Assembly (NCBI GenBank): GCA_030605415.1
Contig: JAUWIJ010000001.1
Span: forward strand, 568 to 64,567
DNA from: an archaeon
Lineage (GTDB): Archaea; Nanobdellota; Nanobdellia; Pacearchaeales; GW2011-AR1
DNA length: 64,000 nucleotides
Reading direction: 5' to 3'
Shown here: positions 1,276-44,271 of the stretch, in pieces
Layout of the letters: every line of letters begins with the position of its first letter
How positions within the stretch are numbered: the stretch's first letter is position 1
Program-made: the position numbers and the translations under genes
Notes under the pieces: generated by a model
Seen by the model: only the letters and a program-made list of their open reading frames with translations
What the model was told of the DNA's origin: nothing
The model's database searches: none

Positions 1276-2552
1276 TCTACTAAAAATCCTCCAGCTTTCA
1301 AAATTTTTCCAAATTCCTCTGCCTTCTCTCTATATTGTTTTGGAAAATTATTCAATTTAAATCCTTTTGGTCGTATACCTTCAACAAACTTTTTCATTGA
1401 TTCGTTTACTAATAATGTACCCCCATTATATAACAAATATTCCTCCTCTTTTTCTTTTCTCGTTCCATACAAATTAACTTTATAATTAATATTTTCGTCA
1501 ACAGAAGGTAATATTTCTGTTACTACCATTTTCTCTAATTTGCCAACCATTCTTGAATCTTTTTTATTTAATTCTTCTCCTTCTTTTAGTCCCTCATATC
1601 TGCATCCACCCAAGCAAGACTTTACTTCTACACATTCTTTACAATCATCTGGAACATATACATTTTTTCTAAAAACATTTAATCTATTCCAGATATTTTT
1701 AAATGGTTCTGTAAAAACATTTCCCTCTGTAAATGGAGAATGTCCACATGCTCTTATGTCACCATTATATGCAATCTGAATTGAACTTCTTCCTGCACTG
1801 CAACTTCTTCTAAAAGTTTTATCTTTTCTTAGGTCTTCAGGTAAAGCACAATATGGAATTACTTCTAAAGCATTTATTTTAATATTAAAATCACTTCTTA
1901 ATTTTACTAAATCTCTTAAAGTAGATACCATTTCATCATTATTCAAATGATAATTTGAGTCTCCTCTGAATGCTGGTCTCAATGCTGGCGTTACTGCAAT
2001 TTTTTTAATACCATAATTTTCTACAAGAAATTTTCCTTGTTCATACACAGAATCTTTATTGATTTTATGAACAACCATATTAATCGTTGGATTAAAACCT
2101 TCTTTAACTAAATTCTCTAAATTCTCCAAAACTTTATTCAACGTATTTATTCCAGTTATTTGTTTAAATTTTTCATTTTGGAAGTATGGTAAAGATACTA
2201 AAAAGCCCATATCTGGATTTACATTTTTCAATTGTGATAATTTGTTTTTATTTAATAAAGATAAATTTGTATTCATACTGCAAGGCGCATTCTTCTTGTA
2301 TAATTGTTTAGCAATTTCTAATGATGCTGGCATATTCATCAAGGGTTCTCCGCCTGTTATCACTGTATCAAAAGGTTTTATTTGACTAAAAAAGATATCC
2401 ATTAATTTTTTTGCTGATTCATTAGACATTTTTTTACTTACAGAATTATTTTCTCTCCAATAATTGTAACAGTAGAAGCATTTATGATTACAATCTTCTG
2501 TAACTTCAATTTGTGCATTTAAAGGATATCTCAATCCAACATTTTCTTCCAT
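1272..2552 (-). CDS. Radical SAM / SPASM-domain peptide-modifying enzyme
   Basis: N-terminal CNHKCFYC (Cx3Cx2C) radical-SAM motif. C-terminal Cys-rich SPASM-like region (CSAGRSS...CGHSPF...CKECVEVKSCLGGCRYEG). Confidence 0.8.
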   Translation of the reverse strand: MEENVGLRYPLNAQIEVTEDCNHKCFYCYNYWRENNSVSKKMSNESAKKLMDIFFSQIKPFDTVITGGEPLMNMPASLEIAKQLYKKNAPCSMNTNLSLLNKNKLSQLKNVNPDMGFLVSLPYFQNEKFKQITGINTLNKVLENLENLVKEGFNPTINMVVHKINKDSVYEQGKFLVENYGIKKIAVTPALRPAFRGDSNYHLNNDEMVSTLRDLVKLRSDFNIKINALEVIPYCALPEDLRKDKTFRRSCSAGRSSIQIAYNGDIRACGHSPFTEGNVFTEPFKNIWNRLNVFRKNVYVPDDCKECVEVKSCLGGCRYEGLKEGEELNKKDSRMVGKLEKMVVTEILPSVDENINYKVNLYGTRKEKEEEYLLYNGGTLLVNESMKKFVEGIRPKGFKLNNFPKQYREKAEEFGKILKAGGFLVE

Positions 2553-2813
2553 TTCGATTTCTCCAGAAACAGTCTGAAGTGCCGACCACCTCTGAATATA
2601 TACCGAGATTAAAGTTTATAAGTTTTATTGCGACTAAGTTTTTGTGTAATTCAATGGAAATGATAAATTAATCCATACAGATAAAAAATTCTCTACACTT
2701 CATGATTGGGAAAAATTTACTCTTAAGTACTGGGGCACCGATGATAATGAGAATTCTGTTTATATAGAGCAGACAGTGTGCGTAGAAAAAGGAACTTTTT
2801 TGTTTGATGTTGG

Positions 2814-3263
2814 TTGTTGAAATGGGAAATAAAAGATTTTATAAACATTATTACTTATGAAATATATATGAAAAAACCAATAATTGATTGTATTGCATTT
2901 CTTCTCATTAAGGGCAACAAAATTCTTTTAGAAAAACGCAAACTAACAAAAAAAGTAGATCCGGGAAAAATTTGTATACCAAGTGGAGGAACAGAAAAAG
3001 GAGAAACTCCAGAGGAGGCTACACTTAGAGAGATAAAAGAAGAATTTGATATTGAAGGAAAGAATCCAAAATTTATTGCAAAAATTATTTATCCTACTGA
3101 AAAAATTAATTTTTTAGTTAGTTATTATGTAATTAAAGAATGGGAAGGTAAAATACAAAATCTTGAAGCCGATAGATTAGAGTGGGTTGAGATAAGTAAA
3201 GACAATGTGGATACATGGATAGATAAAATTGCCATTGATATTTATAAAAATGTTAAATCATAA
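2814..3263 (+). CDS. NUDIX hydrolase (likely true start ATG 2868)
   Basis: Nudix box GGTEKGETPEEATLREIKEEFDI. The in-frame ATG at 2868 gives MKKPIIDCIAF. Confidence 0.75.
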   Translation: MLKWEIKDFINIITYEIYMKKPIIDCIAFLLIKGNKILLEKRKLTKKVDPGKICIPSGGTEKGETPEEATLREIKEEFDIEGKNPKFIAKIIYPTEKINFLVSYYVIKEWEGKIQNLEADRLEWVEISKDNVDTWIDKIAIDIYKNVKS

Positions 3264-3332
3264 TTCTTTCGATAAAAACAATTCACCTTTTCAAGAATAA
3301 TATTAAGCTTTCTTATAAGATAAGCCAATATC

Positions 3333-3959
3333 TTAAAAAAATTCCTCAAAACTCTTTTTTACTTCCTTAAAACTCTTCTCCTTAATATCAAAAATCCTAT
3401 CCTCTCTCTTATTCAAGGTTTCCATCATCTCAATAAATTCCTTTTCTTCAAATATCTCTATCCCCATTTTCTTGCAAACCTTTTTTATTTCCATGATAGA
3501 TTCTTCAACACTTTCTTCATCGGAAATTAATTTTTCTGCTTCAAAATAACAAATATCTCCAGAACGAACTAATGCAAATTCAATGTTTTCCAGCTTGAAT
3601 AAAAAAGTCTTAGTGTCCATTAGAACACCCCTAAACCAACCCAGATGCTTAAAGAATTCCAAAGCCGAACCAAATTTATCTAAATCTATCGGGAACAGAA
3701 ATTCCTTCCTCGCTTCTTCAGCGCCCCAGCGACCATACTTCATAACAATTTCCGCCTCCTTATTAGTCACTCGTAATTTCAAGTCTACCGGATCTTCCCT
3801 AACCGCATTCAAGTCATTAACATCAGAATCTTCTCTAAAATAAATAAAAGAAATTCTGTCTTTCTCTTCCACAAAAATAGCCTCTCGCCTAAATTTCTCT
3901 AAAAGCTCCTCAAAATTTTTTATTCCGCCCCTAACCTCTACTTCTATTTGCTTCGTCAT
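3333..3959 (-). CDS. CYTH-domain (triphosphate tunnel metalloenzyme / CyaB-like) protein
   Basis: N-terminal IEVEVRG (ExExK-like) motif. Size is typical of the CYTH family. Confidence 0.5.
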   Translation of the reverse strand: MTKQIEVEVRGGIKNFEELLEKFRREAIFVEEKDRISFIYFREDSDVNDLNAVREDPVDLKLRVTNKEAEIVMKYGRWGAEEARKEFLFPIDLDKFGSALEFFKHLGWFRGVLMDTKTFLFKLENIEFALVRSGDICYFEAEKLISDEESVEESIMEIKKVCKKMGIEIFEEKEFIEMMETLNKREDRIFDIKEKSFKEVKKSFEEFF

Positions 3960-4597: not shown

Positions 4598-5050
4598 TTA
4601 TTCATCCTTCCTCCTATAATCTTTAATTTCAAGCTTCTGAAAATATTTCTCCCTATTCATTCCCTTTTTCAAAACTTCCCTTAACAATTTCTTATCACCA
4701 CCCCACTTAATCCTCTCAATAAAATCCTCAAGCTCAAGCCACTCATATTTACTATGTTCCTCATTTAAAATAACGTCTGACAAATCAACAAAAGAAATAA
4801 AATTATATTCCTCACAAATATCCTCTTCCCAATTATAAATAGAACTCCAATTCAAAAAAACGGTCTCTCTTACAACTAGACCCGTTTCCTCCATAACTTC
4901 TCTTGTGACAACTGTCTCGTGAGACTCGCTATCTTCAACACCACCAGTTACAACAAACCAGTCGCCCTTTCCGTGCTCCGGATGCGGTTCGCTATACAAA
5001 GCCAACATCTTTTCATCCCTAATAATAAATGTTAAAATCTTTTCTTGCAT
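4598..5050 (-). CDS. NUDIX hydrolase
   Basis: Nudix box GGVEDSESHETVVTREVMEETGL. Confidence 0.75.
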   Translation of the reverse strand: MQEKILTFIIRDEKMLALYSEPHPEHGKGDWFVVTGGVEDSESHETVVTREVMEETGLVVRETVFLNWSSIYNWEEDICEEYNFISFVDLSDVILNEEHSKYEWLELEDFIERIKWGGDKKLLREVLKKGMNREKYFQKLEIKDYRRKDE

Positions 5051-5241: not shown

Positions 5242-6309
5242 ATGAGTAAAAATATTAATATTGCACTTGTTGGTATAGGAAATGTTGCCAGTGCCCTTAT
5301 TCAAGGAATAGAGTATTACAAATTAAACCCCTCTGAGAAATTAGGGATTCTTCCGGAAATAACTCAATATGATGTTGAAGATTTTAATTTTTCCCTTGGA
5401 ATTGATGTTAATAAAGAAAAAGTGGATAAAGATTTAAGCGAGGCTATTTTCATCAAACCCAATTGCGCGGAATTTCTTCATAAACCCAAATGTTTGGATG
5501 CGAGAGTAATTGGAGGATCCATTTTAGATGGACTTGATAGTGATATAAAAAATTATATTCCAGTTGATGAATCATTCGAGAAGACAGATATCCAGACAGA
5601 ATTAATTAATAATAAAATTGATGTAGTCGTTATTCTTTTACCTACAGGTTCACAAAAGGCTGCGGAATTTTATACTAAAGAAGCAATATCTGCAGGATGC
5701 GCAGTTGTAAATGGGATGCCTGCTTTACTTGCAAACAATAAAGAAATAGTCTCCCTTGCGGAGCAGAAAAATATTCCTTTAATTGGAGATGATGTAAAAT
5801 CTCAAATAGGTGCAACAATTATTCATAGAAGTCTATCTAATCTTTTTCCAATGAGAGGGGCGATTATGGATCGCACTATTCAATTAGACTGGGGTGGAGA
5901 TATGGATTTTTGTAATCTTTTAAGCAATGGTAGATACGAACAAGGAAAAAGGCAATCCAAAACAGGGTCAGTGATAGATCATTTGCCGAATAAAAATTCT
6001 GTGGATGTGCAGATTAGTGCTGTAGACTATATCCCTTTTCTGAAAAATCAAAAAGAAGCATATACAAGAATTGAAGGTAGAATTTTTGGAGGCAAAAATG
6101 TAAGAATTGATGTTACTATGCAGGTTCAAGATGGATATAATTCTGCTGGAATTGTGGCAGATATGATTCGGGTCGCTAAAATTGCAAAAGATAAGAATCT
6201 TGGCGGAGTTATTCATCCAGCATGCTCTTTTTTTAATAAAAAACCCCCTATTCAGACAGAAGACGACACTGCAAAAAAAGAGCTTCTAAATTTATTAAGC
6301 GATAAATAA
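5242..6309 (+). CDS. myo-inositol-1-phosphate synthase (archaeal type)
   Basis: N-terminal Rossmann IALVGIGNVASA. Central 'NGMPALLANNKE...IPLIGDDVKSQIGATIIHRSL' and GGDMDF blocks resemble archaeal MIPS. A TATA-like ttataaat lies ~30 nt upstream. Confidence 0.7.
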   Translation: MSKNINIALVGIGNVASALIQGIEYYKLNPSEKLGILPEITQYDVEDFNFSLGIDVNKEKVDKDLSEAIFIKPNCAEFLHKPKCLDARVIGGSILDGLDSDIKNYIPVDESFEKTDIQTELINNKIDVVVILLPTGSQKAAEFYTKEAISAGCAVVNGMPALLANNKEIVSLAEQKNIPLIGDDVKSQIGATIIHRSLSNLFPMRGAIMDRTIQLDWGGDMDFCNLLSNGRYEQGKRQSKTGSVIDHLPNKNSVDVQISAVDYIPFLKNQKEAYTRIEGRIFGGKNVRIDVTMQVQDGYNSAGIVADMIRVAKIAKDKNLGGVIHPACSFFNKKPPIQTEDDTAKKELLNLLSDK

Positions 6310-6310
6310 A

Positions 6311-7750
6311 ATGATAATTAATTCTACTCTTCATAAAGAGAGAAGGGATGCTAGGATTAAAGCTATGAATCCTCAAATATCTTATTCTGGATTTGATTTA
6401 ATGAGTGATATTTCTCAGATGGCAGAAAGAGCAATTAAAAAATCATATAAGGTTTTAGAAAAAAATTTATTTGAAGAAAAATCTCCTTCTATAGCAATAT
6501 TTTTATATGGCTCTGGAGGAAGAGGGGAAATGACAAATTATTCTGATATAGATATACATTTTATTTCCGCGATAGATGATCCTCAAGCATCAGTTTTTCA
6601 AGAAAAATTACACAAGGAATTAGCTAGTTATCAATTTGGAAAAATTGATGATCCTAATTGGAAAAATATGAAATCTGTCGAGAAATATGCTGCAAGAAGT
6701 ATCACTGAAGCCAATCAAATTTTTGATGCAAAATTGGTAGCAGGAGATAAAGGATTAGCTAAGGAATTAACGAGAATTATAGAAAAATATGATACCCAGG
6801 AAAGAAAAATAAGAAATATGTTATTTCAAAAATTTTATTTAGAGCATTATTATGGTGCGAGGAGTAATGTCGAAGTTCCAAATGTAAAATATTGTTCGGG
6901 TGGATATAGAGATCTTTTAACTTTTGATTGGTTTTCTAATTGGATATCATCTACTAAGGGACTTCCTTCTGATATTATAGGAAAAATGCCTCAGATACAA
7001 TATTCTTTAAAGGATATAGGAGCCAAAGGTATTATTACGAACAAAAAAGAACGTTTAGCTCTAGATTCTGCGGAATTTATGGTTTTATTTAGAAATGAAG
7101 TTCTTCATTCTAATATTGGAACTAAAGATGAAGGAATTACTCATTTGGATATTCCTACTATGGAACGAACCTTTTCTTCATCTCCTGAATATTTTTGTTC
7201 TCTTGGTGTTTTTTCTCCGAATCAACTACTGCCTTTATTTAATGAACATGCCAAGGTTATCAAAAATACTAAGAAAAAAATTTTGGATTATATAATTTCA
7301 GTTGAAGGAAAAAATAGAGGGGGGAAATGGCTAAGGGACTATAAGGATTCTCTCGCAATAAATATCTCAAATCAAAGAAGAAAAGAAATTGCGAAACAAG
7401 ATGATGTTATAACCAAGCTTAGTTCTATTTGGGGAATGAATTATAATGCGGACACAGAATTGTTTAATGAGGTTTGTGGGCAAATGATTGGAACGACTCA
7501 ATGGGAAGCGTTAGCCTCGATGGCATGTAGCCCAAAGAGTTCTCCAGAATTATTGAGCGAGATAGCTAAAACTAGCATGAGTCATGAAGGTTTGGGTTAT
7601 ATTCTTAGGATACTCGGAAGGAATCCCTCTACTTCTAAAGGTACCTTAGAAGATATTGCTGGTAATTCTTCATTGGATAAAAGATATAGAATAGTTGCAA
7701 AATTGAATTTGGAAAAAGGTTTATATATTGCGACGACGAGATCTTCTTAA
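6311..7750 (+). CDS. GlnD/DUF294-like nucleotidyltransferase-domain protein
   Basis: Pol-beta NTase signature LYGSGGRGEMTNYSDIDIHF. Followed by a helical substrate-binding-like region. Confidence 0.5.
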   Translation: MIINSTLHKERRDARIKAMNPQISYSGFDLMSDISQMAERAIKKSYKVLEKNLFEEKSPSIAIFLYGSGGRGEMTNYSDIDIHFISAIDDPQASVFQEKLHKELASYQFGKIDDPNWKNMKSVEKYAARSITEANQIFDAKLVAGDKGLAKELTRIIEKYDTQERKIRNMLFQKFYLEHYYGARSNVEVPNVKYCSGGYRDLLTFDWFSNWISSTKGLPSDIIGKMPQIQYSLKDIGAKGIITNKKERLALDSAEFMVLFRNEVLHSNIGTKDEGITHLDIPTMERTFSSSPEYFCSLGVFSPNQLLPLFNEHAKVIKNTKKKILDYIISVEGKNRGGKWLRDYKDSLAINISNQRRKEIAKQDDVITKLSSIWGMNYNADTELFNEVCGQMIGTTQWEALASMACSPKSSPELLSEIAKTSMSHEGLGYILRILGRNPSTSKGTLEDIAGNSSLDKRYRIVAKLNLEKGLYIATTRSS

Positions 7751-7780
7751 TGGAGTTGAAGATATTATCAAGATTGGGAA
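7676..7780. repeat. ~105-bp direct repeat (copy A) duplicated at 8624-8757, flanking the GNAT+ASCH module
   Basis: ga.aaaagatatagaatagttgcaaaatt.aatttggaaaaaggtttatatattgc.acgacgagatcttcttaat …atattatcaagattgggaa. 3 mismatches in the first 75 bp. Copy B has a 23-bp indel. Confidence 0.85.
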
Positions 7781-8569: not shown

Positions 8570-8698
8570 CCATATAATAATCATCAAAGAGTGTTTTTAG
8601 TATTTTGAATATATTACTGTCAGACAAAAGATATAGAATAGTTGCAAAATTAAATTTGGAAAAAGGTTTATATATTGCAACGACGAGATCTTCTTAAT

Positions 8699-9424
8699 AT
8701 GAAGTTAAAAATATTATCTCTAAATATCTTTAGATATTATCAAGATTGGGAAACAAGAAAATCAAAAATTATTAATTTTATTAAAAAAACTAAACCTGAT
8801 ATTATCGTTCTTCAAGAATGTTTTGATGATTCTCGTTATAATAAGGAAGGAGATAATCAAGGCACTCAACTAAATAAGGAACTTGGTTTTAAAAATTGTA
8901 TTTATTCTATTGCAGAAAAACTTAAATCCGAAAGAGGAAAATTAATTGACGTCCCTGTTTATGATGGATTATGTCTATTAACCAACCTTTCAATTATTCA
9001 AAATAATGATATTAAATTAAAGAAAGCAATAGATGACAGACATGATAGAATTATTCAGAGAGTTGTTTTATCAAAAGAAGATAATAAATTTATATTATTT
9101 AATACTCATTTTTCCAACAGGGACGATTGGGCAAACGACCATTTAGAGGAAACAATTAATCTTGCCAAAAAAGAAACAAGCACTCCAATTATTATAGGAG
9201 ATTTAAATATAAAAGTTCAGGAAAATATAATGAAAATTACTGGAGAGGATTATAATATTTCTTGGTTTATAAAAAAATACATATCTTTTCCTTCCGAGGA
9301 AGAAACGTTTGATTATGTGCTCTTGCCAAAAATTGGATATAAATTTGAAAATATTTTTTGTTCAGGAAATCATTTATCGGACCATAAAGCGCTTGTTACT
9401 ACAATTTCTAAAGTAGAAAAGTGA
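8699..9424 (+). CDS. Endonuclease/exonuclease/phosphatase (EEP) family protein
   Basis: LKILSLNIF...PDIIVLQE N-terminal EEP motif. ORF track starts at 8675, but ATG 8699 (MKLKIL) is more likely. Confidence 0.6.
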   Translation: MKLKILSLNIFRYYQDWETRKSKIINFIKKTKPDIIVLQECFDDSRYNKEGDNQGTQLNKELGFKNCIYSIAEKLKSERGKLIDVPVYDGLCLLTNLSIIQNNDIKLKKAIDDRHDRIIQRVVLSKEDNKFILFNTHFSNRDDWANDHLEETINLAKKETSTPIIIGDLNIKVQENIMKITGEDYNISWFIKKYISFPSEEETFDYVLLPKIGYKFENIFCSGNHLSDHKALVTTISKVEK

Positions 9425-9813: not shown

Positions 9814-12426
9814 ATGCCGTTTGATATAATTATTGGAAGAAACGAAAGCGACAAAAAAGCGTTCGGAAATAGAGGACTAGCTTTTATCGGGAAAAGTTTT
9901 GTTACAATGGGAAATTACACGTCGCTGTCGAACCCGATTTTCATGGACGTCGCTCGGTCGCATGTCATTCTAATAAGTGGAAAAAGAGGAAGCGGGAAAT
10001 GTCTTCACGAAGATAGCTTAATTAGTTTAGGAGACGGTTCTCAGGTTTCAATTAAAGATTTGGCTGAAAATTCTGAAAAGATTGTTTCAATGAATAATAA
10101 AATGAAAATGGAATTGGTGGATAAATCTAAGTTTTTTTCCAGAGAGGTTGATAAATTATTAAGTGTTAAACTAAGGAGTGGAAAAGAAATTAAATTAACT
10201 CCAGAGCATCCGCTTTTTACAGTGAAGGGGTGGATTCCTGTTGGTGAATTGGATGTTGGTAGTAGGATTGCGACTCCGAGGGTAATGCCGTGTTTTGGAG
10301 ATTTTCAAATGAAAGAGTGTGAGGTCAAGTTGCTTTCATACCTAATTGCGGAAGGGCATACTAAAAAAGTTGTTTTATTTTCTAATATGGATAAAGAAAT
10401 TGTTGAGGATTTTCGTGAAGCATTAAATAATTTTGATTCATCTCTAAGCTTAATTAAAGAACAAGAAGGTTGTTATAGAATTTCTGATCCTAATTGGAAG
10501 ACAAGTGTTTTGGAACATGATTTATCTCGGACTGATAAGGGGCAGTTTGTGAAAGGTACGAAAAATGTTTGTAGAAAAAGAAGTATTCGGGAATTGATTG
10601 AAAGGGAAAGTATTTTTGGAAAGTTGGCTGTCGAGAAATCCCTTTCTGATAATTTGATGAAACTAAGAAAGAAACAGATGATTTTGTTTTTAAATAGGTT
10701 GTTTAGTTGTGACGGGAGTATATATAAATCAAATAATTATTGGGAGATTTCTTATTCATCTTCTTCGGAAAAATTGATTTGTCAAGTTCAAAGCTTATTG
10801 TTGAGATTTGGTATTTTGTCTAAGCTGAGGGAGAAAAAAGTTAAATATAATGAGAAAATTTTTAATAGTTTTGAGTTGGTTTTGAATTCAGTTAATGTTG
10901 TGAGTTTTATTAAGCAAATTGGTTTTTTTGGACAGAAGGATGCTCGGATGGAAATTGCTCTTGAGGAAATTGATTTAGCCTCGAAGAATCCCAATGTTGA
11001 TATAATACCCAAGGAGATTTGGGATGGGTATCGTCCAAAGAATTGGGCAGAGATTGGTAGAAAATTGGGGTATAAACATCCTAAGGCAATGAGAGAAAGA
11101 ATTAGATATTGCCCTTCTCGAAATACTCTTATGAAGATTGCAGATGCCGATTCTCATGATTTATTTAAACGCTTTGCGAGTTCGGATATTTTTTGGGATG
11201 AGATTATTTCTGTTGATGTTTTAGAGGGAAATGCTACGGTTTATGATATTTGTGTTCCGCGTAATCATAATTTTGTTGCGAATGATATGATTGTTCATAA
11301 TAGCTACACAATTGGCACGATGGCTGAAGCGTTATCTGATTTGGGCGTCGAGGAGTCTGGGAATATAGCACCCTTGATTTTTGACACAATGGGAATTTTC
11401 TGGACGATGAAATATAAAAACGCAAAAGACGAAACCCTATTAGATGAATGGGAATTAGAACCAAAAAATATTCCAATGAGAGTTTTCGCCCCATTCGGTT
11501 ATTATCAAAAATATAAAGATAAGGGAGTTGATGTCGACGCTGAGTTTGCTATTAAAATTTCCGAGTTAGATTCGACAGATTGGGTCGCGCTTTTTGAGTT
11601 AAGGTTTACCGATGCGATTGCAGTTATAATTGAATCCGTAATCAGCGAGTTAAAAGAGTCAAAAGATAATTTTAGTTTTGAAGATATTTATAATTTAATT
11701 AGACGTGCGGAAAATGTTTCGCAGGAAGTCAAAAATTCGGCGATGGCATTATTCGATGCAGCGAAGAGCTGGAAGGTTTTTGACGAAGAAAAGGGAACAT
11801 CGGTCCGGGATTTGATTTCCGCAGGACGAACAACAGTGATTGACTTGTCGATGTATGCTTCGCTCGGAACTTTTAACGTCAGGGCTTTAATTATTAGTCT
11901 GGTTTCAAAGAAAATTTTTAATGAAAGGATGAGCGCAAGGAAAGACGAAGAAATTCAGGCAGTGCAACATGGTGCGGATTATGCGAGATATAAAATTAAA
12001 AGAGAGGTACCATTAGTCTGGATATTTATCGACGAAGCACACGAGTTTCTCCCCAGAGACGGAAAAACACCGGCGACAGATGCCCTGGTTCAAATATTAA
12101 GGGAGGGAAGACAACCCGGGATTTCAATAGTGATGGCGACGCAACAACCCGGAAAAATTCACACGGATGCGATGACCCAATCAGACATTATAATTTCACA
12201 TAGAGTCACAGCGAAGCTAGACGTCGACGCCCTAAATGACATTACGCAAAGCTATATGTATTCAAATATCTCGGAAAAAATTAACGGACTGCCTCGGCTG
12301 AAAGGTTCGGCTATTATTTTAGACGACAACTCGGAAAGAATTTATCCAATGAGAATCAGACCACGATGGACTTGGCACGGCGGCGAAGCACCGACAGCAA
12401 TCAAAAAAGTTGATGAAGAATTGTAG
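9814..12426 (+). CDS. HerA/FtsK-superfamily (COG0433-like) ATPase containing an intein
   Basis: Walker A GKRGSGK|C...HN|SYT is interrupted by the intein. Walker B VWIFIDEAHEF. ATQQPG motif. Confidence 0.8.
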   Translation: MPFDIIIGRNESDKKAFGNRGLAFIGKSFVTMGNYTSLSNPIFMDVARSHVILISGKRGSGKCLHEDSLISLGDGSQVSIKDLAENSEKIVSMNNKMKMELVDKSKFFSREVDKLLSVKLRSGKEIKLTPEHPLFTVKGWIPVGELDVGSRIATPRVMPCFGDFQMKECEVKLLSYLIAEGHTKKVVLFSNMDKEIVEDFREALNNFDSSLSLIKEQEGCYRISDPNWKTSVLEHDLSRTDKGQFVKGTKNVCRKRSIRELIERESIFGKLAVEKSLSDNLMKLRKKQMILFLNRLFSCDGSIYKSNNYWEISYSSSSEKLICQVQSLLLRFGILSKLREKKVKYNEKIFNSFELVLNSVNVVSFIKQIGFFGQKDARMEIALEEIDLASKNPNVDIIPKEIWDGYRPKNWAEIGRKLGYKHPKAMRERIRYCPSRNTLMKIADADSHDLFKRFASSDIFWDEIISVDVLEGNATVYDICVPRNHNFVANDMIVHNSYTIGTMAEALSDLGVEESGNIAPLIFDTMGIFWTMKYKNAKDETLLDEWELEPKNIPMRVFAPFGYYQKYKDKGVDVDAEFAIKISELDSTDWVALFELRFTDAIAVIIESVISELKESKDNFSFEDIYNLIRRAENVSQEVKNSAMALFDAAKSWKVFDEEKGTSVRDLISAGRTTVIDLSMYASLGTFNVRALIISLVSKKIFNERMSARKDEEIQAVQHGADYARYKIKREVPLVWIFIDEAHEFLPRDGKTPATDALVQILREGRQPGISIVMATQQPGKIHTDAMTQSDIIISHRVTAKLDVDALNDITQSYMYSNISEKINGLPRLKGSAIILDDNSERIYPMRIRPRWTWHGGEAPTAIKKVDEEL
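10000..11301 (+). mobile_element. Intein (434 aa) with LAGLIDADG homing endonuclease, inserted in the P-loop
   Basis: Begins with Cys (CLHEDSLISLGDGS, block A). Ends VHN followed by Ser. LAGLIDADG-like motifs LLSYLIAEGH and LNRLFSCDGSIY. Confidence 0.8.
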
Positions 12427-12439
12427 GAAACGTCTTTGA

Positions 12440-12520
12440 CGTTGCGGTTGGGAGTTAGGGGTTGGGAGTTGGGGGCGGGAAACTCCAAACTCCAAACTTC
12501 TAACTACCAACTGGAGAGGG
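12440..12520. repeat. Family-A G-rich repeat element (GGGAGTTGGG / CCAACT-type), intergenic
   Basis: gttgggagttaggggttgggagttggggg...aactccaaactccaaacttctaactaccaact. Related copies at 16845-16935, 19492-19572, 21258-21362, 31417-31555 and 32913-32965. Confidence 0.8.
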
Positions 12521-12562
12521 GGGAAATATTTATAAACAAGTCATTCTTAATATATTCAGAAA

Positions 12563-13234
12563 ATGGTGAAAAAAATTCAGATTAACATGTCGAACAAATC
12601 GTTTTATTCGTTGATTGTGTTTGGGGTTTTGATTTTGGCAGGCATTGGAGTTTACGCTTATAATTCTGGGGCTGACCCGTCGGTGATGGGGCATTCTATT
12701 GATGAGATTGAGGGATTGGGTTCTCTTATGGATAATTATTACACTAAAAGTGAAGTTTATACTCAAAGTGAAGTTTACACCAAAGAACAAATTGATGCTA
12801 TGATTTCTACAATAGAATCTGGCGGAACTGGATGTCCTGTAGGATATACACTTTATAAACAAAGCACTGAAACAGCGAAATGTTATAAGGATGGAAAGAT
12901 TATTACTATTCTATGGTATGCGTATGGTACAGTGATGAGTGGGCGTGACTGGCAGTGTGAAGGACGTATTAATAGTGGGAACCTTCAAACTCGCGCAACT
13001 TCCAACCCTGGAGATTATAATGAGGTTTCTAGTGGTTGGGTAGATGGAACAAGCGAAACATACCAAATGTATTATCCTCAATATAGAATTAGATGTGTTC
13101 CAAATTGGAAAGGAATGATTATGCAATATGAGAATTCAGTATATGGCACTCCAATGTGGCGCCCAACAGCGGAGTATCATCTAAGCCCAAAAGGGTATGA
13201 AGTTAGTTGGGGTAATGTTCTCCAAATTAATTAA
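12563..13234 (+). CDS. Secreted/TM-anchored protein with tail-fibre-like SEVYT repeats
   Basis: N-terminal TM/signal. 'KSEVYTQSEVYTKEQID' repeat. The first ~33 codons and the promoter are identical to the 19611 gene. Confidence 0.45.
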   Translation: MVKKIQINMSNKSFYSLIVFGVLILAGIGVYAYNSGADPSVMGHSIDEIEGLGSLMDNYYTKSEVYTQSEVYTKEQIDAMISTIESGGTGCPVGYTLYKQSTETAKCYKDGKIITILWYAYGTVMSGRDWQCEGRINSGNLQTRATSNPGDYNEVSSGWVDGTSETYQMYYPQYRIRCVPNWKGMIMQYENSVYGTPMWRPTAEYHLSPKGYEVSWGNVLQIN

Positions 13235-13300
13235 CTTCTGACATAATTAAAAATTAATTAAGTGTAATAATATTTATAAAGAGTTGAAAGATAAGATTTC

Positions 13301-13987
13301 ATGGGAGTTATCGCGAGCTCAAGTAACTGGATAGATTATGCCAATGCGGTTGGAGATTTTAATAAAGCTCATAGAAAAGATACCGTTGCTCAAGAGTATG
13401 GTTTAGATAGTAAAATTGCTCCCGGAATGTGGTTGGCTTCGCATATTCAGGGAAAGGAAAAAATTTCTGGCGTAAAACAAATTAAATTTCCCGAAGTGGT
13501 TCACGAGTGGGATTATTTTGAAATTACAAATACTAATGGGAAACCAAAAGAGAGAAATTATAAATTTAATTGTGAGGGCAAAAAAGTATGTGAAATTACA
13601 GGTGTTGCATTTCGAGATTACGATAGTCCCGCGGGAGATTTAGAAGACGTCCTCCATGAATACAAAACAGAGATAAGACAAAACCAAATCAATAACTATT
13701 GGAAATCTATCGGTCATCTTAAAGGAAACGGCAAGACTTTACCTAATATGTATTTAGCGTCACTGTTTGCTCCGGCTCTGTTAGATTTTGGAGAAAAAAC
13801 GGGATTGACAGGTTTTCATGCGACTCAAAATTTTCAAATTCATAAAGATTATTCCGAAGGGAAAATTAACTTTTTAATCGGGGACAGAAAAGACAGAGGA
13901 CCATTAAGTTTTTTGAAATTAAGAGGTTATCAAAATGGCGATATGGTAATTTCCGGAGGGGCAGGAATTCTTCTTTCTGATATGTAA
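13301..13987 (+). CDS. Hypothetical protein, possible MaoC/hotdog-like N-terminus
   Basis: GDFNKAHRKD...IAPGMWLAS resembles the MaoC dehydratase motif. Weak. Confidence 0.3.
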   Translation: MGVIASSSNWIDYANAVGDFNKAHRKDTVAQEYGLDSKIAPGMWLASHIQGKEKISGVKQIKFPEVVHEWDYFEITNTNGKPKERNYKFNCEGKKVCEITGVAFRDYDSPAGDLEDVLHEYKTEIRQNQINNYWKSIGHLKGNGKTLPNMYLASLFAPALLDFGEKTGLTGFHATQNFQIHKDYSEGKINFLIGDRKDRGPLSFLKLRGYQNGDMVISGGAGILLSDM

Positions 13988-14032
13988 TTATTTAACCTTA
14001 AAGCTCACTTGCCAACAGTATCTGTAAGCTCC

Positions 14033-14077
14033 AATATGGGCACAAATAAATTATAGTTTAAATGGTGCCCATATTTT
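14033..14077. repeat. Palindrome ATATGGGCAC-N21-GTGCCCATAT downstream of Fic. A second copy at 15000-15041 lies upstream of Fic
   Basis: atatgggcacaaataaattatagttt aaatggtgcccatat versus atatgggcacatgtttataaatgtttgttttgtgcccatat. Confidence 0.7.
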
Positions 14078-14080
14078 AGA

Positions 14081-14992
14081 TTAATCAAAAAAGTCTTTGA
14101 TGTTTTCTTCGAGTGTCTCAATTAGAAAAAAAAATATTAAATCATATTTTTCGTCGTTTGCTCCCCTTGTTGCTTGTAAGTATTTTTGTCTTTGTTTACT
14201 ATATATGTTTATCCAGGGATAGTTTTTTTTGCTTAGTAGAAAATTCATAATTAGTCTTGAAACTCTTCCGTTTCCGTCTATGAAAGGGTGGATTGTTACG
14301 AATTTCATTGAAACTAAGATTGCTAATTCGAATGGGGAGTAGTTGTTTTTATTTTGTTTATACCAGTAGAGTAAATTTCTTATTAGCTGCGGGACTTTTT
14401 CTGGGACAGGAATCTTGAAGGTGCTGCCGGTGATTCTTACATTTGTTTGTCTGTACTTTCCTGCAAATCTTTCTGAGATATCTTTTAGTATTATGGAATG
14501 TAGTTTTAGGATGAGTTCTTCGGTTAAATCTCCTTTGTATTCTTTTAGATAATTTAGTACCTTTTGGTGATTTTTTGCTTCGTAGATTTCTCTTATCGTT
14601 TTTCCTTCTGGTGAAATATTGTCGTTAATAATTAGAGATGTTTCTTGTAGTGAGAGTGTATTTCCTTCTATCGCGTTGCTGTTATAGGTTAGCTCTGTGA
14701 AAAATGCCTCTTCGAATTTTTCGAATTCGTCTTTGTTTAGTTTTTTAATTTCTTTGTTGTATTTGTTTTTTAGCGTTTCAATTCGAGTTGCTTGGTCTTT
14801 TTCTATGTAGTTGTATTTTTCTGCCATTAATTCTGTTTCGAATTTTTCTTTTAATTCTATTATTTCTTTTTTGGATTTTGTTCCCGTTCCAATGAATTTG
14901 CTTTTTTTAATCCATTTATTGTTAACTCGTTTGTTGTGGATTAGGTAATTTTGGGTTTCTCTATTAACTTTTCTTGTCTCATGATATACCAT
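14081..14992 (-). CDS. Fic/Doc family protein (AMPylase-like)
   Basis: Canonical Fic motif HPFIDGNGRVSRL. Confidence 0.85.
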   Translation of the reverse strand: MVYHETRKVNRETQNYLIHNKRVNNKWIKKSKFIGTGTKSKKEIIELKEKFETELMAEKYNYIEKDQATRIETLKNKYNKEIKKLNKDEFEKFEEAFFTELTYNSNAIEGNTLSLQETSLIINDNISPEGKTIREIYEAKNHQKVLNYLKEYKGDLTEELILKLHSIILKDISERFAGKYRQTNVRITGSTFKIPVPEKVPQLIRNLLYWYKQNKNNYSPFELAILVSMKFVTIHPFIDGNGRVSRLIMNFLLSKKNYPWINIYSKQRQKYLQATRGANDEKYDLIFFFLIETLEENIKDFFD

Positions 14993-15049
14993 ATTTATTT
15001 ATATGGGCACATGTTTATAAATGTTTGTTTTGTGCCCATATGAGATTTA

Positions 15050-15235
15050 TCATTTAACTTTAAATGTTGCTTGCCAACGGTATTTATAAGCTCCGATGTC
15101 GCCGGCTTTTCGGATTTTGATTTTGCCGATTTTACATAGAGTGTCTTTTTTTATTTCGTCCAAGACTTCTTCCCTTGTCCCAAACCCGTGATAAAAAATT
15201 ACCGTTCCCTTTTTAGAAGTCACTAAAATTACAAA
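15050..15235. repeat. Pseudo-copy (~180 bp, ~85% id) of the trm5 3' end
   Basis: Aligns with 16590-16770 (ttgccaacg.tat.tataagc.ccgat...ttcggattttgatt.tgccgatttta...cttcttcccttgtcccaaacccgtgata.aaaatta). A shorter 45-bp copy lies at 13995-14040. Confidence 0.85.
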
Positions 15236-15289
15236 TATATCTTATTTCTATTAACAATGGAAATTATATGACCAATATCTCCATTCTAA

Positions 15290-16579
15290 ATGGATAGTTT
15301 TATAAAGTCTATTCGTCATAGAATGTTTATGAATAAAATAGAGCTTAAAGAAATAATTTTAGATCAAAATAGGGAAAGAAAAGAAGAAAAGCTAATAGAA
15401 AGGGAAGTTTTTTCTAAAATTAAAGATTATGCAAAAAATCGTTTTGTAATAATTATTTCGGGGATACGAAGAAGTGGCAAATCAACATTATTGAGTCAAA
15501 TAAAGAATAAATATCCTGGTTATTATCTTAATTTTGACGACGACAGATTAGTCAATTTTAAATTAGAAAATTTTCAAATTTTATATGAAACTCTTATTGA
15601 GATATATGGTGAAAAAAATAATTTTTATTTTGACGAAATACAAAATATTGCGGGATGGGAAAGATTTGTCAGAAGATTACATGATGAAAGAGAAAAGGTT
15701 TTTGTAACTGGCTCTAATGCTTCTATGCTTAGCAGAGAGCTTGGAACTCATTTAACAGGAAGACATTTAGAAATGAACTTGTTTCCCTTTTCATTTAGAG
15801 AATTTTTAAATTTCAAGGAATTCAGTATAAATAAAAAATCAATTTACCTGACTAAAGAAAAAGCAAAAATAAAAAAATATTTTGAAGAATATTTATTAGA
15901 GGGAGGACTTCCGGAATATCTCAAGACCAATAATAAAGAATATCTTAAAACTCTTTATGATAATATTCTGTATAGGGATATAATAGTAAGATATAAGTTG
16001 TCAAATGAAAAAATTATAAAGGAGCTTGTTTATTTAGCCGTGACTAATATAGCAAAAGAAATAAGTTTCAATTCAATGAAAAAGTTATTGGGTTTTGGAA
16101 GTTCAACCACCGTAAAAGAGTATTTCAGTTATTTAGAGAACAGTTTTCTTATTTTTTTAGTGCCAAAATTTGACTATTCTTTAAAGAAACAAGTTTATTC
16201 AAATAAAAAAGTATACGTGATTGATAATGGTCTTGCGGTGAATTTAGGATTTAGATTTTCAAAAGATTCAGGCAAGTTGTTAGAAAATCTTGTGTTTGTC
16301 GAATTAAAAAGGAAGGGCAGAGAAATATTTTATTATTCTAATAAGCATGAATGTGATTTTGTCATTAGAGATAAAATGAAAATTAAAGAGGCGATACAAG
16401 TTTGTTATGAGTTTAATGAAGAGAATAAAAAGAGAGAGATTGAAGGACTGGTTGAAGCTATGGAAAATTTCAAATTGAAGAATGGCTTAATTTTAACTTA
16501 TGACCAAAATGAAGAATTTATTTTTAAAAAGAAAAATATAAAAGTTATTTCTGTTTGGAAATGGCTGTTAGAAGAATAA
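15290..16579 (+). CDS. AAA+ ATPase with DUF4143-type C-terminal domain
   Basis: Walker A IISGIRRSGKSTLL. Architecture matches the common archaeal 'ATP-binding protein (DUF4143)' family. Confidence 0.65.
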   Translation: MDSFIKSIRHRMFMNKIELKEIILDQNRERKEEKLIEREVFSKIKDYAKNRFVIIISGIRRSGKSTLLSQIKNKYPGYYLNFDDDRLVNFKLENFQILYETLIEIYGEKNNFYFDEIQNIAGWERFVRRLHDEREKVFVTGSNASMLSRELGTHLTGRHLEMNLFPFSFREFLNFKEFSINKKSIYLTKEKAKIKKYFEEYLLEGGLPEYLKTNNKEYLKTLYDNILYRDIIVRYKLSNEKIIKELVYLAVTNIAKEISFNSMKKLLGFGSSTTVKEYFSYLENSFLIFLVPKFDYSLKKQVYSNKKVYVIDNGLAVNLGFRFSKDSGKLLENLVFVELKRKGREIFYYSNKHECDFVIRDKMKIKEAIQVCYEFNEENKKREIEGLVEAMENFKLKNGLILTYDQNEEFIFKKKNIKVISVWKWLLEE

Positions 16580-16588
16580 AGGTTTTAA

Positions 16589-17503
16589 TCATCTAACCTT
16601 AAAACTCGCTTGCCAACGATACTTATAAGCCCCGATATCACCCGCCTTTCGGATTTTGATTCTGCCGATTTTATTTTTAGTGTCTGTTTTTATTTCGCTT
16701 AAAACTTCTTCCCTTGTCCCAAACCCGTGATAGAAAATTATTGTTCCTTTCTTTGAAAGTTTAAGCGCGGTTTTGAGAAAAGTATCTTTGAGGTTTGGTC
16801 GGGGCATCAAGATAATATCGAAGGTTTCGATATTATCAGGGATTAGGAATTTGGGATTTGGAATTTGTGGGAGCAGAGGACTACCAACTACAAACTCCCA
16901 ACTCCGAACTGGGGATGAGGATTTGGAATTAGGGACATGTCTAAGTTTTGTTGGTAATTTCTTCGCGTCGCCATCGACCAATGTTATATAATTTTGAAAT
17001 TTATTCAGAACAATATTTTTCTTCGCTGACTCATTCGCCTTTTTATTAAGTTCATTTGAAATTATGACCGCGTGTTTCCCCGCCTGTTTTAATTTTCTCG
17101 CAATAATAATTGGATAAGGAGCAACTCCGGCAAACATGACAAGGATTTTTGTGCCAGATTTTTTAGATAACTTAACAACCTCGTCGGCGATAATTTTTCT
17201 TTCATTTGACAACCGCGGAGAAAAATAAGATTCGTCGATATTAAATTTGAATACACACTGGTTTTCTCTGTATATTGTTTCCTTTGTTTTGATTCCCGCG
17301 AGGTGTTTTGTTTTCAAGATTCGAAGTTTTCCCGAGAAGCCTTCGGTTTTTTCGACGACAGTCATAACTGTTTTATTCTCTTTCAAAAATTTTCTTGCTT
17401 TTAATTTTTTAATTAACCATAAGGTTCGTCTTGGAAATTTTAGAATCGCGATATTTCCGAGGATGTCCTGAGGAATTTTTTTCATAAATAAATACAATTT
17501 CAT
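16589..17503 (-). CDS. trm5: tRNA (guanine37-N1)-methyltransferase Trm5 family, with in-frame repeat insertion
   Basis: FSPRLSNER and MFAGVAPY SAM-MTase motifs. Carries a ~30-aa insert (HVPNSKSSSPVRSWEFVVGSPLLPQIPNPKF) encoded by a family-A repeat at ~16845-16935. Confidence 0.7.
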   Translation of the reverse strand: MKLYLFMKKIPQDILGNIAILKFPRRTLWLIKKLKARKFLKENKTVMTVVEKTEGFSGKLRILKTKHLAGIKTKETIYRENQCVFKFNIDESYFSPRLSNERKIIADEVVKLSKKSGTKILVMFAGVAPYPIIIARKLKQAGKHAVIISNELNKKANESAKKNIVLNKFQNYITLVDGDAKKLPTKLRHVPNSKSSSPVRSWEFVVGSPLLPQIPNPKFLIPDNIETFDIILMPRPNLKDTFLKTALKLSKKGTIIFYHGFGTREEVLSEIKTDTKNKIGRIKIRKAGDIGAYKYRWQASFKVR

Positions 17504-19492: not shown

Positions 19493-19610
19493 GTTAGGTG
19501 TTTGGGGTTCGGAGCGGGGGGGACTACTAACTCCTAACTACCAACTTCTAACTACCAACTGGAGAGGGGGGAAATATTTATAAACAAGTCATTCTTAATA
19601 TATTCAGAAA

Positions 19611-20108
19611 ATGGTGAAAAAAATTCAGATTAACATGTCGAACAAATCGTTTTATTCTTTGATTGTGTTTGGGGTTTTGATTTTGGCAGGCATTGGAGTT
19701 TACGCTTATGGGACTTCTAACCCTGCTGTTTTTGGGCATAGTGCTGGAGAGATTGAAGGTTTAGGAGAATTATTAATTCCTTCTGGGGCTGTGATGGCGT
19801 TTAATTTAGCAAGTTGCCCGTCTGGCTGGAGTACATATGCTTCTGCAAAAGATAGAGTTATTGTTGGTTCAGGAAGTTCATATTCTCTTGGTAAAAAAGG
19901 CGGAGCAAAAACACATACATTGACAATTGCTGAGATGCCGAAGCATAGACATGCATATACAAATGCAGGAAATTTTGGAGGGGGAGGGAAACATTATCCC
20001 TCTGGATATAGTCCTCAGGAAATGACTTACACTGATTATGTAGGTGGCAACCAACCTCACAACAATATGCAACCATATATTGCACTTTTATATTGTCAGA
20101 AAAATTAA
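19611..20108 (+). CDS. Phage tail-collar domain protein with N-terminal TM/signal
   Basis: THTLTIAEMPKHRHAY...HNNMQPY motif of the tail-collar (microcystin-dependent protein-like) domain. N-terminus is identical to the 12563 gene. Confidence 0.6.
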   Translation: MVKKIQINMSNKSFYSLIVFGVLILAGIGVYAYGTSNPAVFGHSAGEIEGLGELLIPSGAVMAFNLASCPSGWSTYASAKDRVIVGSGSSYSLGKKGGAKTHTLTIAEMPKHRHAYTNAGNFGGGGKHYPSGYSPQEMTYTDYVGGNQPHNNMQPYIALLYCQKN

Positions 20109-31416: not shown

Positions 31417-31555
31417 GACTGGGAATTTGGGACACGAGCTAGGTATTTGGTATTTGGGATTTGGGATTTGTGGGAGCAGGGGACTACCAACTACAAACTC
31501 CCAACTCCGAACTGGGGATGGGGATTTGTGAGAAACAGGGAAGGGGATTGGAAGC
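31417..31555. repeat. Family-A repeat element, intergenic; ~75 nt near-identical to the copy inside trm5
   Basis: gatttgtgggagcaggggactaccaactacaaactcccaactccgaactggggatgggga matches 16858-16932 with 2 mismatches. Confidence 0.85.
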
Positions 31556-33284: not shown

Positions 33285-33431
33285 AAAATTATAAATATTG
33301 TTTAGTTTAAATTAATTGTGGTGTTCAAATTAGTTAAGAAAGTTGAGGGAGAGATGGGTGCTTTCGGGAAAATTATTTAGCTCGAACAAAATAGGAAGGT
33401 TTATATACAAACTTCTATATAAAGATATATA

Positions 33432-43562: not shown

Positions 43563-43665
43563 GCTTTCGTAGCTCAGCAGGTAGAGCGCACGGCTGTTAC
43601 ATGGGTTTGCTTTGGTAGATTTTGCAGAGACCGTGATGTCGGAGGTTCGAGTCCTCCCGAAAGCG
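43563..43665 (+). tRNA. tRNA-Asn(GUU) with ~30-nt intron in the anticodon loop
   Basis: Hand fold. Acceptor GCTTTCG/CGAAAGC. D arm GCTC-AGCAGGTA-GAGC. Anticodon stem CACGG/CCGTG with loop CTGTTA + intron (43600-43629) + A. T arm GGAGG-TTCGAGT-CCTCC. Discriminator G. No encoded CCA. Confidence 0.75.
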
Positions 43666-44215
43666 TAGCTGAGTCGAACCGACGACGTCGGAGGCGAAAA
43701 CCTTTGCTCGAATTTTGCACAAACAGAAATATATCGCAAAATTTCAGAGTGAAGTTTGAGTAGAGTCCTCCCGAAAGCGTAGCTGAGTAGGACATCGAAC
43801 CGTAGACGTCGGAGGCGAGCAATTTACTCGAATTTTTCTCAACAAGAAAATAAAATCGACAAAATTTCAGTGTGCCCCGCCCAGTTTCAAATATATTTGG
43901 TAGGGTATAGAGTGAAGTTTGAGTAGAGTCCTCCCGAAAGCGTAGCTGAGTAGGACATCGAACCGTAGATTGTCGGTGTGAGTTTCGAGCTGTTTGACTA
44001 AATCCAAATACACAAATTGCTCGGAACGAAAGAAAATCTTTGCTCCTCGCAGAGGTTCCTGTGACCCTTGTGGTTACGAATTTTGTCTAAAAAATAAAAA
44101 TAAAATCGACAAAATTTCAGTATGCCCCGCCCAGTTTCAAATATATTTGGTAGGGTATAGAGTGAAGTTTGAGCAGAGTCCTCCCCGAAGTGTAGTTAAG
44201 TCAAACCGACGACGT
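43666..44215. repeat. Array of three degenerate copies of the tRNA-Asn 3' end with ~240-nt duplicated spacer
   Basis: gagtcctcccgaaagcgtagctgagt recurs at ~43757, ~43927 and ~44175 (last copy degenerate). Spacer 43838-43960 duplicates 44090-44200 (aaaataaaatcgacaaaatttcagt.tgccccgcccagtttcaaatatatttggtagggtatagagtgaagtttgag). Confidence 0.7.
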
Positions 44216-44271
44216 CTAACACCCAAACCAATTTCCAAATAATTTATAAACTTCTTTTTCTATTTTATTCT

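Follow-up and report, generated by a model that had tools for sequence, protein, structure and literature searches.

Stacked single-gene cassettes and displaced gene ends downstream of trm5 in a pacearchaeal genome

Genes and repeats downstream of trm5

The locus described here lies on contig JAUWIJ010000001.1 of a low-G+C (35%) DPANN archaeon, in a stretch of 64 kb that is referred to below as the window. It is centered on trm5, the gene of the tRNA (m1G37) methyltransferase; the 1828 Trm5 homologues found have a typical length of 261 aa and carry the source labels Pacearchaeota or Nanoarchaeota; a look-up by exact sequence for Trm5 of the window matched no record. The order of genes and repeats (Table 1) is trm5 with its own terminus (R0), a gene for an ATPase with AAA_14 and DUF4143 domains (the AAA gene), a displaced trm5 terminus (R1), a Fic/DOC family gene, a second and shorter displaced terminus (R2), and a convergent gene of 228 aa, whose stop codon is abutted by that of R2. 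The direct repeats R0 and R1 (173 nt) bracket the AAA gene, R1 and R2 (48 nt) bracket the Fic gene, and R0 completes the live copy of trm5.

R0 and R1 could be aligned over 173 nt without gaps (83% identity; local alignment score 115, the maximum in 200 shuffles being 17). R2, which comprises about 48 nt of the trm5 end, is 77-79% identical to both of them, and was detected by blastn with E = 1e-8 against the 8.6-kb flank. A first-pass annotation of the sequence had named the three genes and described the arrangement as target end/cargo/target end/cargo/target end. The Pfam matches and the repeat search agree with this description, and the repeat coordinates proposed at that stage (16589-16770, 15050-15235 and 13995-14040) hold to within a few bases. 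The array is not a product of misassembly, since window positions 12632-16907 recur with 100% identity in an independently built Logan assembly (L008, run SRR12623522); the Logan contig ends only at two dispersed repeats located outside the array.

Table 1. Features of the trm5 locus (window coordinates)
Feature	Position	Strand	Basis
trm5, tRNA (m1G37) methyltransferase, live target gene, 304 aa	16589-17503	-	Pfam TRM5-TYW2_MTfase, 2.3e-23
R0, current trm5 terminus (last 55 codons, stop and 4 nt)	16585-16757	-	repeat
Probable crossover interval of the AAA insertion in R0	16663-16698	-	allele switch of informative sites
AAA_14 + DUF4143 ATPase gene, convergent with trm5, between R0 and R1	15329-16579	+	Pfam
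Promoter/operator of the AAA gene, left edge of the AAA module	15234-15328	+	conserved upstream of AAA homologues in three other contexts
R1, displaced trm5 terminus (55 intact codons and stop)	15046-15218	-	repeat
Probable partner crossover interval in R1	15124-15159		allele switch of informative sites
H1, Fic promoter/operator, 41-nt palindrome around the TATA box	15001-15041	-	conserved at Fic homologues
Fic/DOC family gene, between R1 and R2	14081-14992	-	Pfam Fic, 4.6e-22
H2, second copy of the Fic operator arms ATATGGGCAC/GTGCCCATAT, different loop	14034-14074	-	palindrome search
R2, oldest displaced trm5 terminus	13985-14037	-	repeat and translation
MaoC-like gene, 228 aa, older convergent neighbor of trm5	13301-13987	+	synteny with relatives
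herA-type ATPase gene with LAGLIDADG intein, far border of the hotspot	9814-12426	+	Pfam

The G+C content of the AAA gene (26%) and of the Fic gene (31%) departs from that of the neighboring genes (36-38%), and homologues of both, at 60-85% identity, occupy many unrelated contexts. Together with the related loci described below, this marks the Fic and AAA genes as acquired cargo, in line with the claim of the first-pass annotation that single-gene cargoes had been inserted between the copies. The AAA gene matches the PADLOC family PDC-S01 (1e-117), and the Fic gene matches PDC-S04 and SoFic; these are candidate single-gene defence families. DUF4143 has been placed in the PD-(D/E)XK nuclease superfamily (PMC3424549). 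Upstream of another AAA/DUF4143 homologue, in locus L104, there is directly adjacent a transposase of the IS66 family (2299-3820), and most contigs with that homologue break at this point.

Both cargo genes carry their own control regions. Alignment of starts and upstream sequences identified a conserved ATGAAT as the start of the AAA gene (15329), in place of the mechanically called open reading frame (ORF) that begins at 15290. The upstream region of about 95 nt contains a palindrome (CAATGGAAAT..ATCTCCATTC, 15255-15286) and a TATA box (TTTTATAAAG, 15298-15307). DNA homology with an AAA module in another locus (L094, 85% identical) covers window positions 15234-16570, and the module in the window therefore ends within about 10 nt of R1 and 5 nt of the trm5 stop codon.

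The Fic gene is bracketed by two 41-nt palindromes of the form ATATGGGCAC-N21-GTGCCCATAT (H1 and H2), where none is expected by chance. Palindromes of this type occur only around Fic, and that of the AAA gene is different. The arms of H1 flank a TATA box (TTTATAAA), and the same element precedes Fic homologues by 47 nt in three unrelated contexts (L089-L093). H2 lies downstream of Fic with no gene behind it, and is joined to R2 at an ATAT microhomology. No H2-like downstream copy was present at three other distinct Fic loci; H2 may have served as promoter to a gene of the donor that stayed behind. We also considered the hairpins as attC-like or arm-type recombination sites, and rejected this idea because the same TATA-bearing element precedes Fic homologues at unrelated loci.

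Related loci and recurrence of the pattern

For comparison, 87 related trm5 loci were fetched, and the presence of the two cargo genes at trm5 was assessed in about 80 loci of related Pacearchaeota. Neither a Fic nor an AAA gene was found at the 3' site of trm5 in any of them. In the closest relative (L004; Trm5 body 92% and herA 97% identical to those of the window) trm5 is followed by the 228-aa gene, then by one of 233 aa and by herA, and both Fic and AAA are absent. The 228-aa gene follows trm5 immediately in L004 (88% aa identity), and more distant copies of it lie directly downstream of trm5 in about 15 other relatives; this gene marks the original end of the trm5 locus. In 44 related loci herA is located convergently downstream of trm5, at a distance of anything between 0 or a few bases and about 4.6 kb, and in L005, L013, L015 and L082 the two genes abut directly. 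The trm5/herA junction is a conserved insertion hotspot between two convergent genes.

Since relatives in which trm5 converges on herA or on the 228-aa gene hold neither of the cargo genes, Fic and AAA are insertions. The comparison that the first-pass annotation had proposed thus bears out its view of insertion at the 3' end of trm5, with empty or nearly empty sites in the relatives, and of regeneration of the target, as each insertion has left a live terminus plus a displaced older one. No trm5 remnants were found beside Fic or AAA homologues elsewhere.

The displaced ends have the properties of former alleles. Over 55 codons R1 differs from R0 by a dS (synonymous divergence) of 0.77 and a dN (nonsynonymous divergence) of 0.09 (dN/dS 0.12); it contains no stop, frameshift or indel, and its own stop codon is in frame. 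Neutral in-situ decay since duplication would give a dN/dS of about 0.5. Because of the low ratio and the intact reading frame, R1 is not considered a duplicate that decayed in place, and these data, with the relatives that lack the cargo, dispose of the alternative that the first-pass annotation had set against its own reading, namely decayed tandem duplications of trm5 with Fic and the ATPase as ancestral neighbors. R1 appears instead, on its pattern of substitutions, to be a once-working trm5 end from another lineage, and was presumably the live end before the AAA insertion. Seven changes are private to R1 (including Lys-Asn to Leu-Cys), compared with two in R0, which indicates that decay of R1 has begun. 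R2 translates as IGAYRYCWQVSFKVK followed by a stop, and the invariant Arg of its RWQ motif is now Cys, so that decay rises from R1 to R2. The peptides of the old and new trm5 ends are nearly identical (47/55 residues). A phylogenetic placement of R0 and R1 by protein identity was discarded, as the C-terminus is too conserved to resolve it.

Displaced trm5 ends were also found in relatives. Beside the 228-aa gene, L004 keeps a positional homologue of R2 that is shorter and lies 40 nt from the live trm5 end; the first displacement is therefore older than the split between the window and L004, and L004 later lost the insert. In L068 there is an intact displaced end of 141 nt (nonsynonymous and synonymous differences per site, pN 0.10 and pS 0.50), with 118 nt between the copies, and in L077 a 33-nt copy of the trm5 end lies about 200 nt downstream. 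The displaced ends at L068 and L096 (see below) show, as judged from their substitutions, the same trend of allelic copies. Exchange within trm5 is further seen when the gene of the window (16589-17503) is compared with that of L004 (2914-3807). The two form a three-part mosaic, in which a central 300 nt is 97-100% identical at the DNA level and the two ends are 76-88% identical, next to a 228-aa gene that is 91% identical, and exchange between diverged alleles must therefore occur in trm5.

Repeated gene ends are not confined to trm5. A second stacked array was found in L096, from another archaeon, where an AAA module (72% identical) lies behind an unrelated beta-helix gene and is flanked by 89-nt copies of the 3' end of that gene (4810-4898 and 6262-6350; 80% identity, pN 0.12, pS 0.58). 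The order is beta-helix gene, AAA module, 89-nt end copy, PIN cassette, 96-nt copy and a convergent PPIase gene, and the AAA module has the same orientation as its target, in contrast to the inverted orientation in the window. The 96-nt copy (4631-4726 and 7042-7137) represents a more upstream part of the beta-helix gene, the order of copies not being one of simple nesting. Flanking duplications were absent from the AAA loci L094, L102, L103 and L104, unlike L096, and from the surroundings of the three distinct Fic loci.

Three further cases, all listed in the first-pass annotation as signs of recurrence, were confirmed in the window as repeated gene ends. (i) The end of an NTase gene is repeated after a pair of GNAT and ASCH genes (7676-7769 and 8623-8718, 92-96% identical). 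The repeat includes the NTase 3' end and the first codons of the downstream EEP gene, whose start is degraded in the first copy; because it spans a junction between genes, it is local sequence in general, and not specifically 3' ends, that becomes duplicated. (ii) A 45-nt piece near the 3' end of cca, encoding the CCA-adding enzyme (32875-32919), recurs at 33317-33361 (84% identity) after an ORF of 99 aa. (iii) An intron-containing tRNA-Asn(GTT) gene (region 43563-44219; Rfam 59.5 bits, missed by ARAGORN) is accompanied by three further copies of its 3' end and downstream sequence, at 43746, 43909 and 44159, with no ORFs between the copies.

Similar cases were found in relatives, in which HicAB cassettes are flanked by direct repeats of 32-92 nt. 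Toxin-antitoxin cassettes of this kind occur in L071 (5798-5889 and 6588-6679, repeats of 92 nt, 98% identical) and in L093 (6492-6523 and 7303-7334, repeats of 32 nt, 97% identical); the types represented are HicAB and HicA with small ORFs, and one cassette lies just upstream of trm5.

The window contains other repeats as well. An 88-nt dispersed repeat (16838-16925) is inserted in frame within trm5, to which it adds about 43 residues; a 93% identical copy (31441-31528) lies upstream of cca, and weaker copies were detected near 12447, 19493 and 21276. Trm5 proteins of relatives have other in-frame inserts at two loop positions (e.g. G[TS]AP.NNKNKSVRV), and the C-terminus of the cca product runs into a repeat of the GGGATT type. 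The repeat within trm5 is reminiscent of the in-frame palindromic elements of Rickettsia. We rejected its interpretation as a hairpin-forming miniature inverted-repeat transposable element, as its DNA fold is no better than that of shuffled sequences (z = -0.15). A second repeat, of 181 nt (12481-12661 and 19529-19709, 98% identical), comprises the upstream region and first 33 codons of two pilin-like genes that are otherwise different, and encodes an N-terminus resembling a class III signal peptide.

The herA-type gene in the window encodes 870 aa including the intein; herA of L005 (872 aa) also has one, and a herA match of ~2.6 kb suggests an intein in L047. In other relatives, where contigs show the full extent of the gene, herA is intein-free and encodes about 390-450 aa.

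Origin of the insertions

The explanation that we favor, and to which we attach about even confidence, is serial homology-guided insertion at the trm5/herA hotspot, for which general recombination would suffice and a dedicated site-specific recombinase would be unnecessary. On three occasions or more, foreign DNA would have recombined into this very compact pacearchaeal chromosome within the terminus of trm5, each time bringing an allele of the trm5 end that had diverged but still worked. The two most recent arrivals would each have delivered one self-contained gene with its promoter/operator, Fic first and AAA/DUF4143 second. Each event would have spared trm5 and shifted the previous terminus downstream as a pseudo-copy (R2, then R1), and it is because of this displacement that the newest cassette would adjoin trm5. 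The AAA event would be a natural Campbell-type "pop-in", in which a donor of ~1.5 kb, circular or ends-in and composed of a trm5-end allele and the AAA module, was joined to the chromosome by a single reciprocal crossover. The junction between Fic and R2 resembles a join at the 4-nt ATAT microhomology. The agents would be the homologous (homeologous) recombination system of the cell and selection against damage to the abutting genes. The duplication across the NTase/EEP junction fits a process in which any local homology can serve as substrate.

The crossover proposed for the AAA event was mapped at the sites where R0 and R1 differ. Left of nt 68 of the 165-nt trm5 terminus, L004 agrees with R1 at 6 of 7 such sites, and right of it with R0 at 14 of 15 (Fisher p 0.0006); the preference is reversed when the consensus of 70 relatives takes the place of L004 (p 0.02). 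R0 has a consensus-like 5' third and L004-like 3' two thirds, and R1 is the reciprocal mosaic. If the two alleles are called F and D, R0 would consist of F (5') and D (3'), and R1 of D (5') and F (3'), from which we infer that the two repeats are products of one crossover. The allele type switches between nt 58 and nt 93, and the crossover is placed 60-95 nt upstream of the trm5 stop codon. A crossover in the Fic event must have fallen within the last 48 nt of the terminus, and across events and lineages the 5' edges of the duplicated trm5 segments are found at about -173, -141, -48, -33 and -19 nt from the stop. No crossover core is shared by the independent trm5 insertions, as both edges and crossover positions differ, and on this point the claim of the first-pass annotation that integration was site-specific was not supported. 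One apparent core was examined, the codons for YHGFGT, where the longest identical run between copies lies in both the window and L068; it was rejected because the longest run starts there in 71% of random pairs of relatives, this being the best-conserved DNA stretch.

Several observations weigh against homology-guided insertion. R0 and R1 are reciprocal chimeras, as expected for Campbell-type insertion, at few sites and with a breakpoint picked post hoc: about 25 informative positions carry the mosaic, and with the edge sites included, a maximum-chi-square permutation test yields p = 0.05. The proposed crossover falls in an identical patch of 11+7 nt, outside a 29-nt identical block, and alleles of ~83% identity with such a short patch form a poor substrate for a recombinase of the RecA/RadA type, and would fit the core of a tyrosine recombinase equally well. 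No more than 5-12 nt separates the cargo modules from the repeats, a neater fit than expected of random events. The tRNA-Asn gene with its three 3'-end copies is a classic integrase footprint in the same window, so that integrase-like events may take place in this lineage. An integrase may be encoded outside the 64 kb analyzed of the 162-kb contig, and no donor with trm5 beside AAA or Fic was found among the 80 relatives.

The first alternative is serial site-specific integration of minimal or deletion-remnant elements, similar to cis-mobilizable elements (CIMEs), with an attP that imitates the 3' end of trm5, the tyrosine or serine recombinase being supplied from elsewhere in the genome or by a helper. 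We consider this a serious rival, at clearly less than even probability. The regenerated target, the displaced fragment and the tandem stack all match it, as do the tight module junctions and the tRNA-Asn copies; a reciprocal crossover is also what an integrase would produce, and the identical patch into which the crossover falls is short. Tandem arrays of integrated elements, and insertion into the 3'-distal part of a protein gene, are both on record for archaea (PMC6563490). Flanking repeats and empty sites are thus both present, as in an integrase-borne element; a recombinase gene was not found. No recombinase family was recognized in the 38 window ORFs of 188 aa or more, which include the cargo, so that the earlier statement that the 64 kb lack an integrase stands for ORFs of this size. 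Nor was an integrase pseudogene found between the repeats. Of the families represented by 114 ORFs that follow trm5 in related genomes, the 25 most frequent include no recombinase; two Y2 (IS91-type) transposases and one Y1 transposase were noted among the genes there.

Further evidence against site-specific integration comes from the target side. Variable edges and crossovers would need several specificities for one gene, and in L096 the same AAA module lies behind an unrelated gene whose own end is duplicated. The repeats are long (48-173 nt) and diverged, compared with known archaeal att sites, which are 8-69 bp and identical (PMC6563490). No mimic of the trm5 end was found in 2.9 million viral contigs, or on any virus or plasmid-like contig, and scans of the viral contigs with the Trm5 C-terminus, the AAA protein (as single sequence and profile) and Fic returned only one distant AAA relative. 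The absence of a viral mimic, the variable edges and the duplicated NTase junction also speak against a trans-acting recombinase as the possibly trans-acting mechanism that the first-pass annotation had suggested.

Other kinds of mobile element agree less well with the locus. The module ends showed no terminal inverted repeats and the window ORFs no transposase, and the flanking repeats are 48-173 nt long and allelic, which does not correspond to a transposon, insertion sequence or casposon. Neither attC nor IntI of an integron was found, the palindromes of the cargo being promoter/operators.

In a second alternative, one-sided homology-facilitated illegitimate recombination, a linear fragment from a relative would pair with trm5 on one side and its other end would be joined by microhomology within the resident terminus, so that the old end becomes partly duplicated. 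The H2/R2 junction at ATAT is of this kind, and the divergence of trm5 from L004 reaches well upstream of the 48-nt R2 repeat. With zero intergenic space, moreover, only joins inside trm5 would spare the neighboring gene, and the same mechanism has been proposed for stacked effector-immunity arrays of type VI secretion systems (T6SS) and for Rhs tips (PMC5361080). It predicts, however, that R0 is entirely donor and R1 entirely resident, or that their 5' parts are identical, whereas these parts are unlike at 10/66 nt and have exchanged allele types; the neat ends of the cargo modules are also left unexplained by it. Because of the reciprocal mosaic, a purely one-sided origin of the AAA insertion is disfavored, and we rate this alternative as improbable.

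Of comparably low probability, in our estimation, is a dedicated trans-acting system by which DPANN archaea would deliver defence cassettes, each a single gene with its promoter, to the termini of housekeeping genes, in the manner of an integron in which mimics of gene termini replace attC. Its agent could be an unrecognised recombinase or the AAA/PD-(D/E)XK protein itself. Such a system, if real, would explain the neat module boundaries, the four cases in 64 kb and the presence of the AAA module behind two unrelated genes.

Self-mobilization of the AAA/DUF4143 gene, with the ATPase and its PD-(D/E)XK nuclease cutting gene ends for homing-like copy-in, is very unlikely. The nuclease assignment of DUF4143 (PMC3424549) would allow it, in the stacked arrays of both the window and L096 the AAA module lies nearest the target gene, as the most recent insert, and its boundaries are the same in three contexts. 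Against this, 2 of the 4 close AAA contexts have no flanking duplication, other cargo (Fic, GNAT with ASCH, PIN, HicAB) has the same kind of flanking repeats, the family matches the candidate defence gene PDC-S01, and the repeats are allelic and not fresh target duplications. Finally, in-situ tandem duplication and decay of trm5 beside ancestral Fic and ATPase genes would account for the partial copies downstream of trm5 and nothing more, and can practically be dismissed in view of a dN/dS of 0.12 in place of about 0.5, an R1 without frameshift or stop, about 80 relatives without either gene, and the deviant G+C content and unrelated contexts of the cargo.

Relation to known systems and significance

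Campbell-type single-crossover pop-in of a non-replicating circle is established in archaeal and bacterial genetics. The AAA insert resembles it in lying between direct repeats that are reciprocal chimeras of donor and resident sequence; unlike the laboratory procedure, the trm5 case is natural, with only about 175 nt of homology at 83% identity.

Islands that target and regenerate the 3' parts of genes are known from Islander-type elements (PMC4383910), from archaeal integrated mobile genetic elements in 3'-distal regions of protein genes (PMC6563490), and as tandem islands at ssrA of Dehalococcoides (PMC3146451). The trm5 locus shares with such integrase-borne islands the regenerated end, the displaced fragments, the stacked elements and the empty sites in relatives. 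It differs in that no integrase lies in or near the cassettes, the cargo consists of single genes (1.0 and 1.5 kb), the repeats are 48-173 nt long and only 79-83% identical, and the crossover positions differ. CIMEs, the att-flanked units without recombination genes that accrete at the 3' end of fda in streptococci (PMC5704250), are similar to the trm5 cassettes as repeat-flanked units stacked at the 3' end of a housekeeping protein gene. CIMEs, however, derive from integrative and conjugative or integrative and mobilizable elements and share short identical att sites and a known integrase, in contrast to the diverged allelic repeats at trm5, where neither a helper element nor an integrase is known.

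The closest systems in logic are arrays formed by C-terminal displacement, namely Rhs tips, orphan ends of contact-dependent inhibition (CDI) genes and T6SS effector-immunity arrays, for which homology-anchored recombination without an integrase has been proposed (PMC5361080; Jackson et al. 2009, cited there). As at trm5, the 3' end is replaced through anchoring homology, the old ends are kept downstream, and the newest unit is proximal. In the Rhs and T6SS arrays the target is a polymorphic toxin, the new tip is functionally different, and the cargo is the cognate immunity gene; at trm5 the target is a tRNA methylase with a housekeeping role, its end is exchanged for an equivalent allele, and the gene brought in has no relation to it. 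Integron cassettes are likewise single genes added beside a fixed point, with the older ones pushed back; those at trm5, by contrast, have no IntI or attC and carry their own promoters, and the Fic hairpins travel with Fic homologues. The type of event is therefore broadly known, and the trm5 case differs by its housekeeping target, the swap for an equivalent allele, the unrelated promoter-bearing defence candidates and the DPANN host.

DPANN genomes are tiny and tightly packed, and how they gain accessory and defence genes is poorly understood. The trm5 locus provides a base-resolved record of what would be three successive acquisitions at one hotspot, each with a gene end from a foreign allele. 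It suggests that short, diverged homology may suffice for the insertion of a single-gene module of 1-1.5 kb without an element-encoded integrase. If this is general, displaced gene ends could show how often, and when, the streamlined genomes of uncultured organisms gained genes, and gene flow of this kind would be missed by island finders that rely on integrases.

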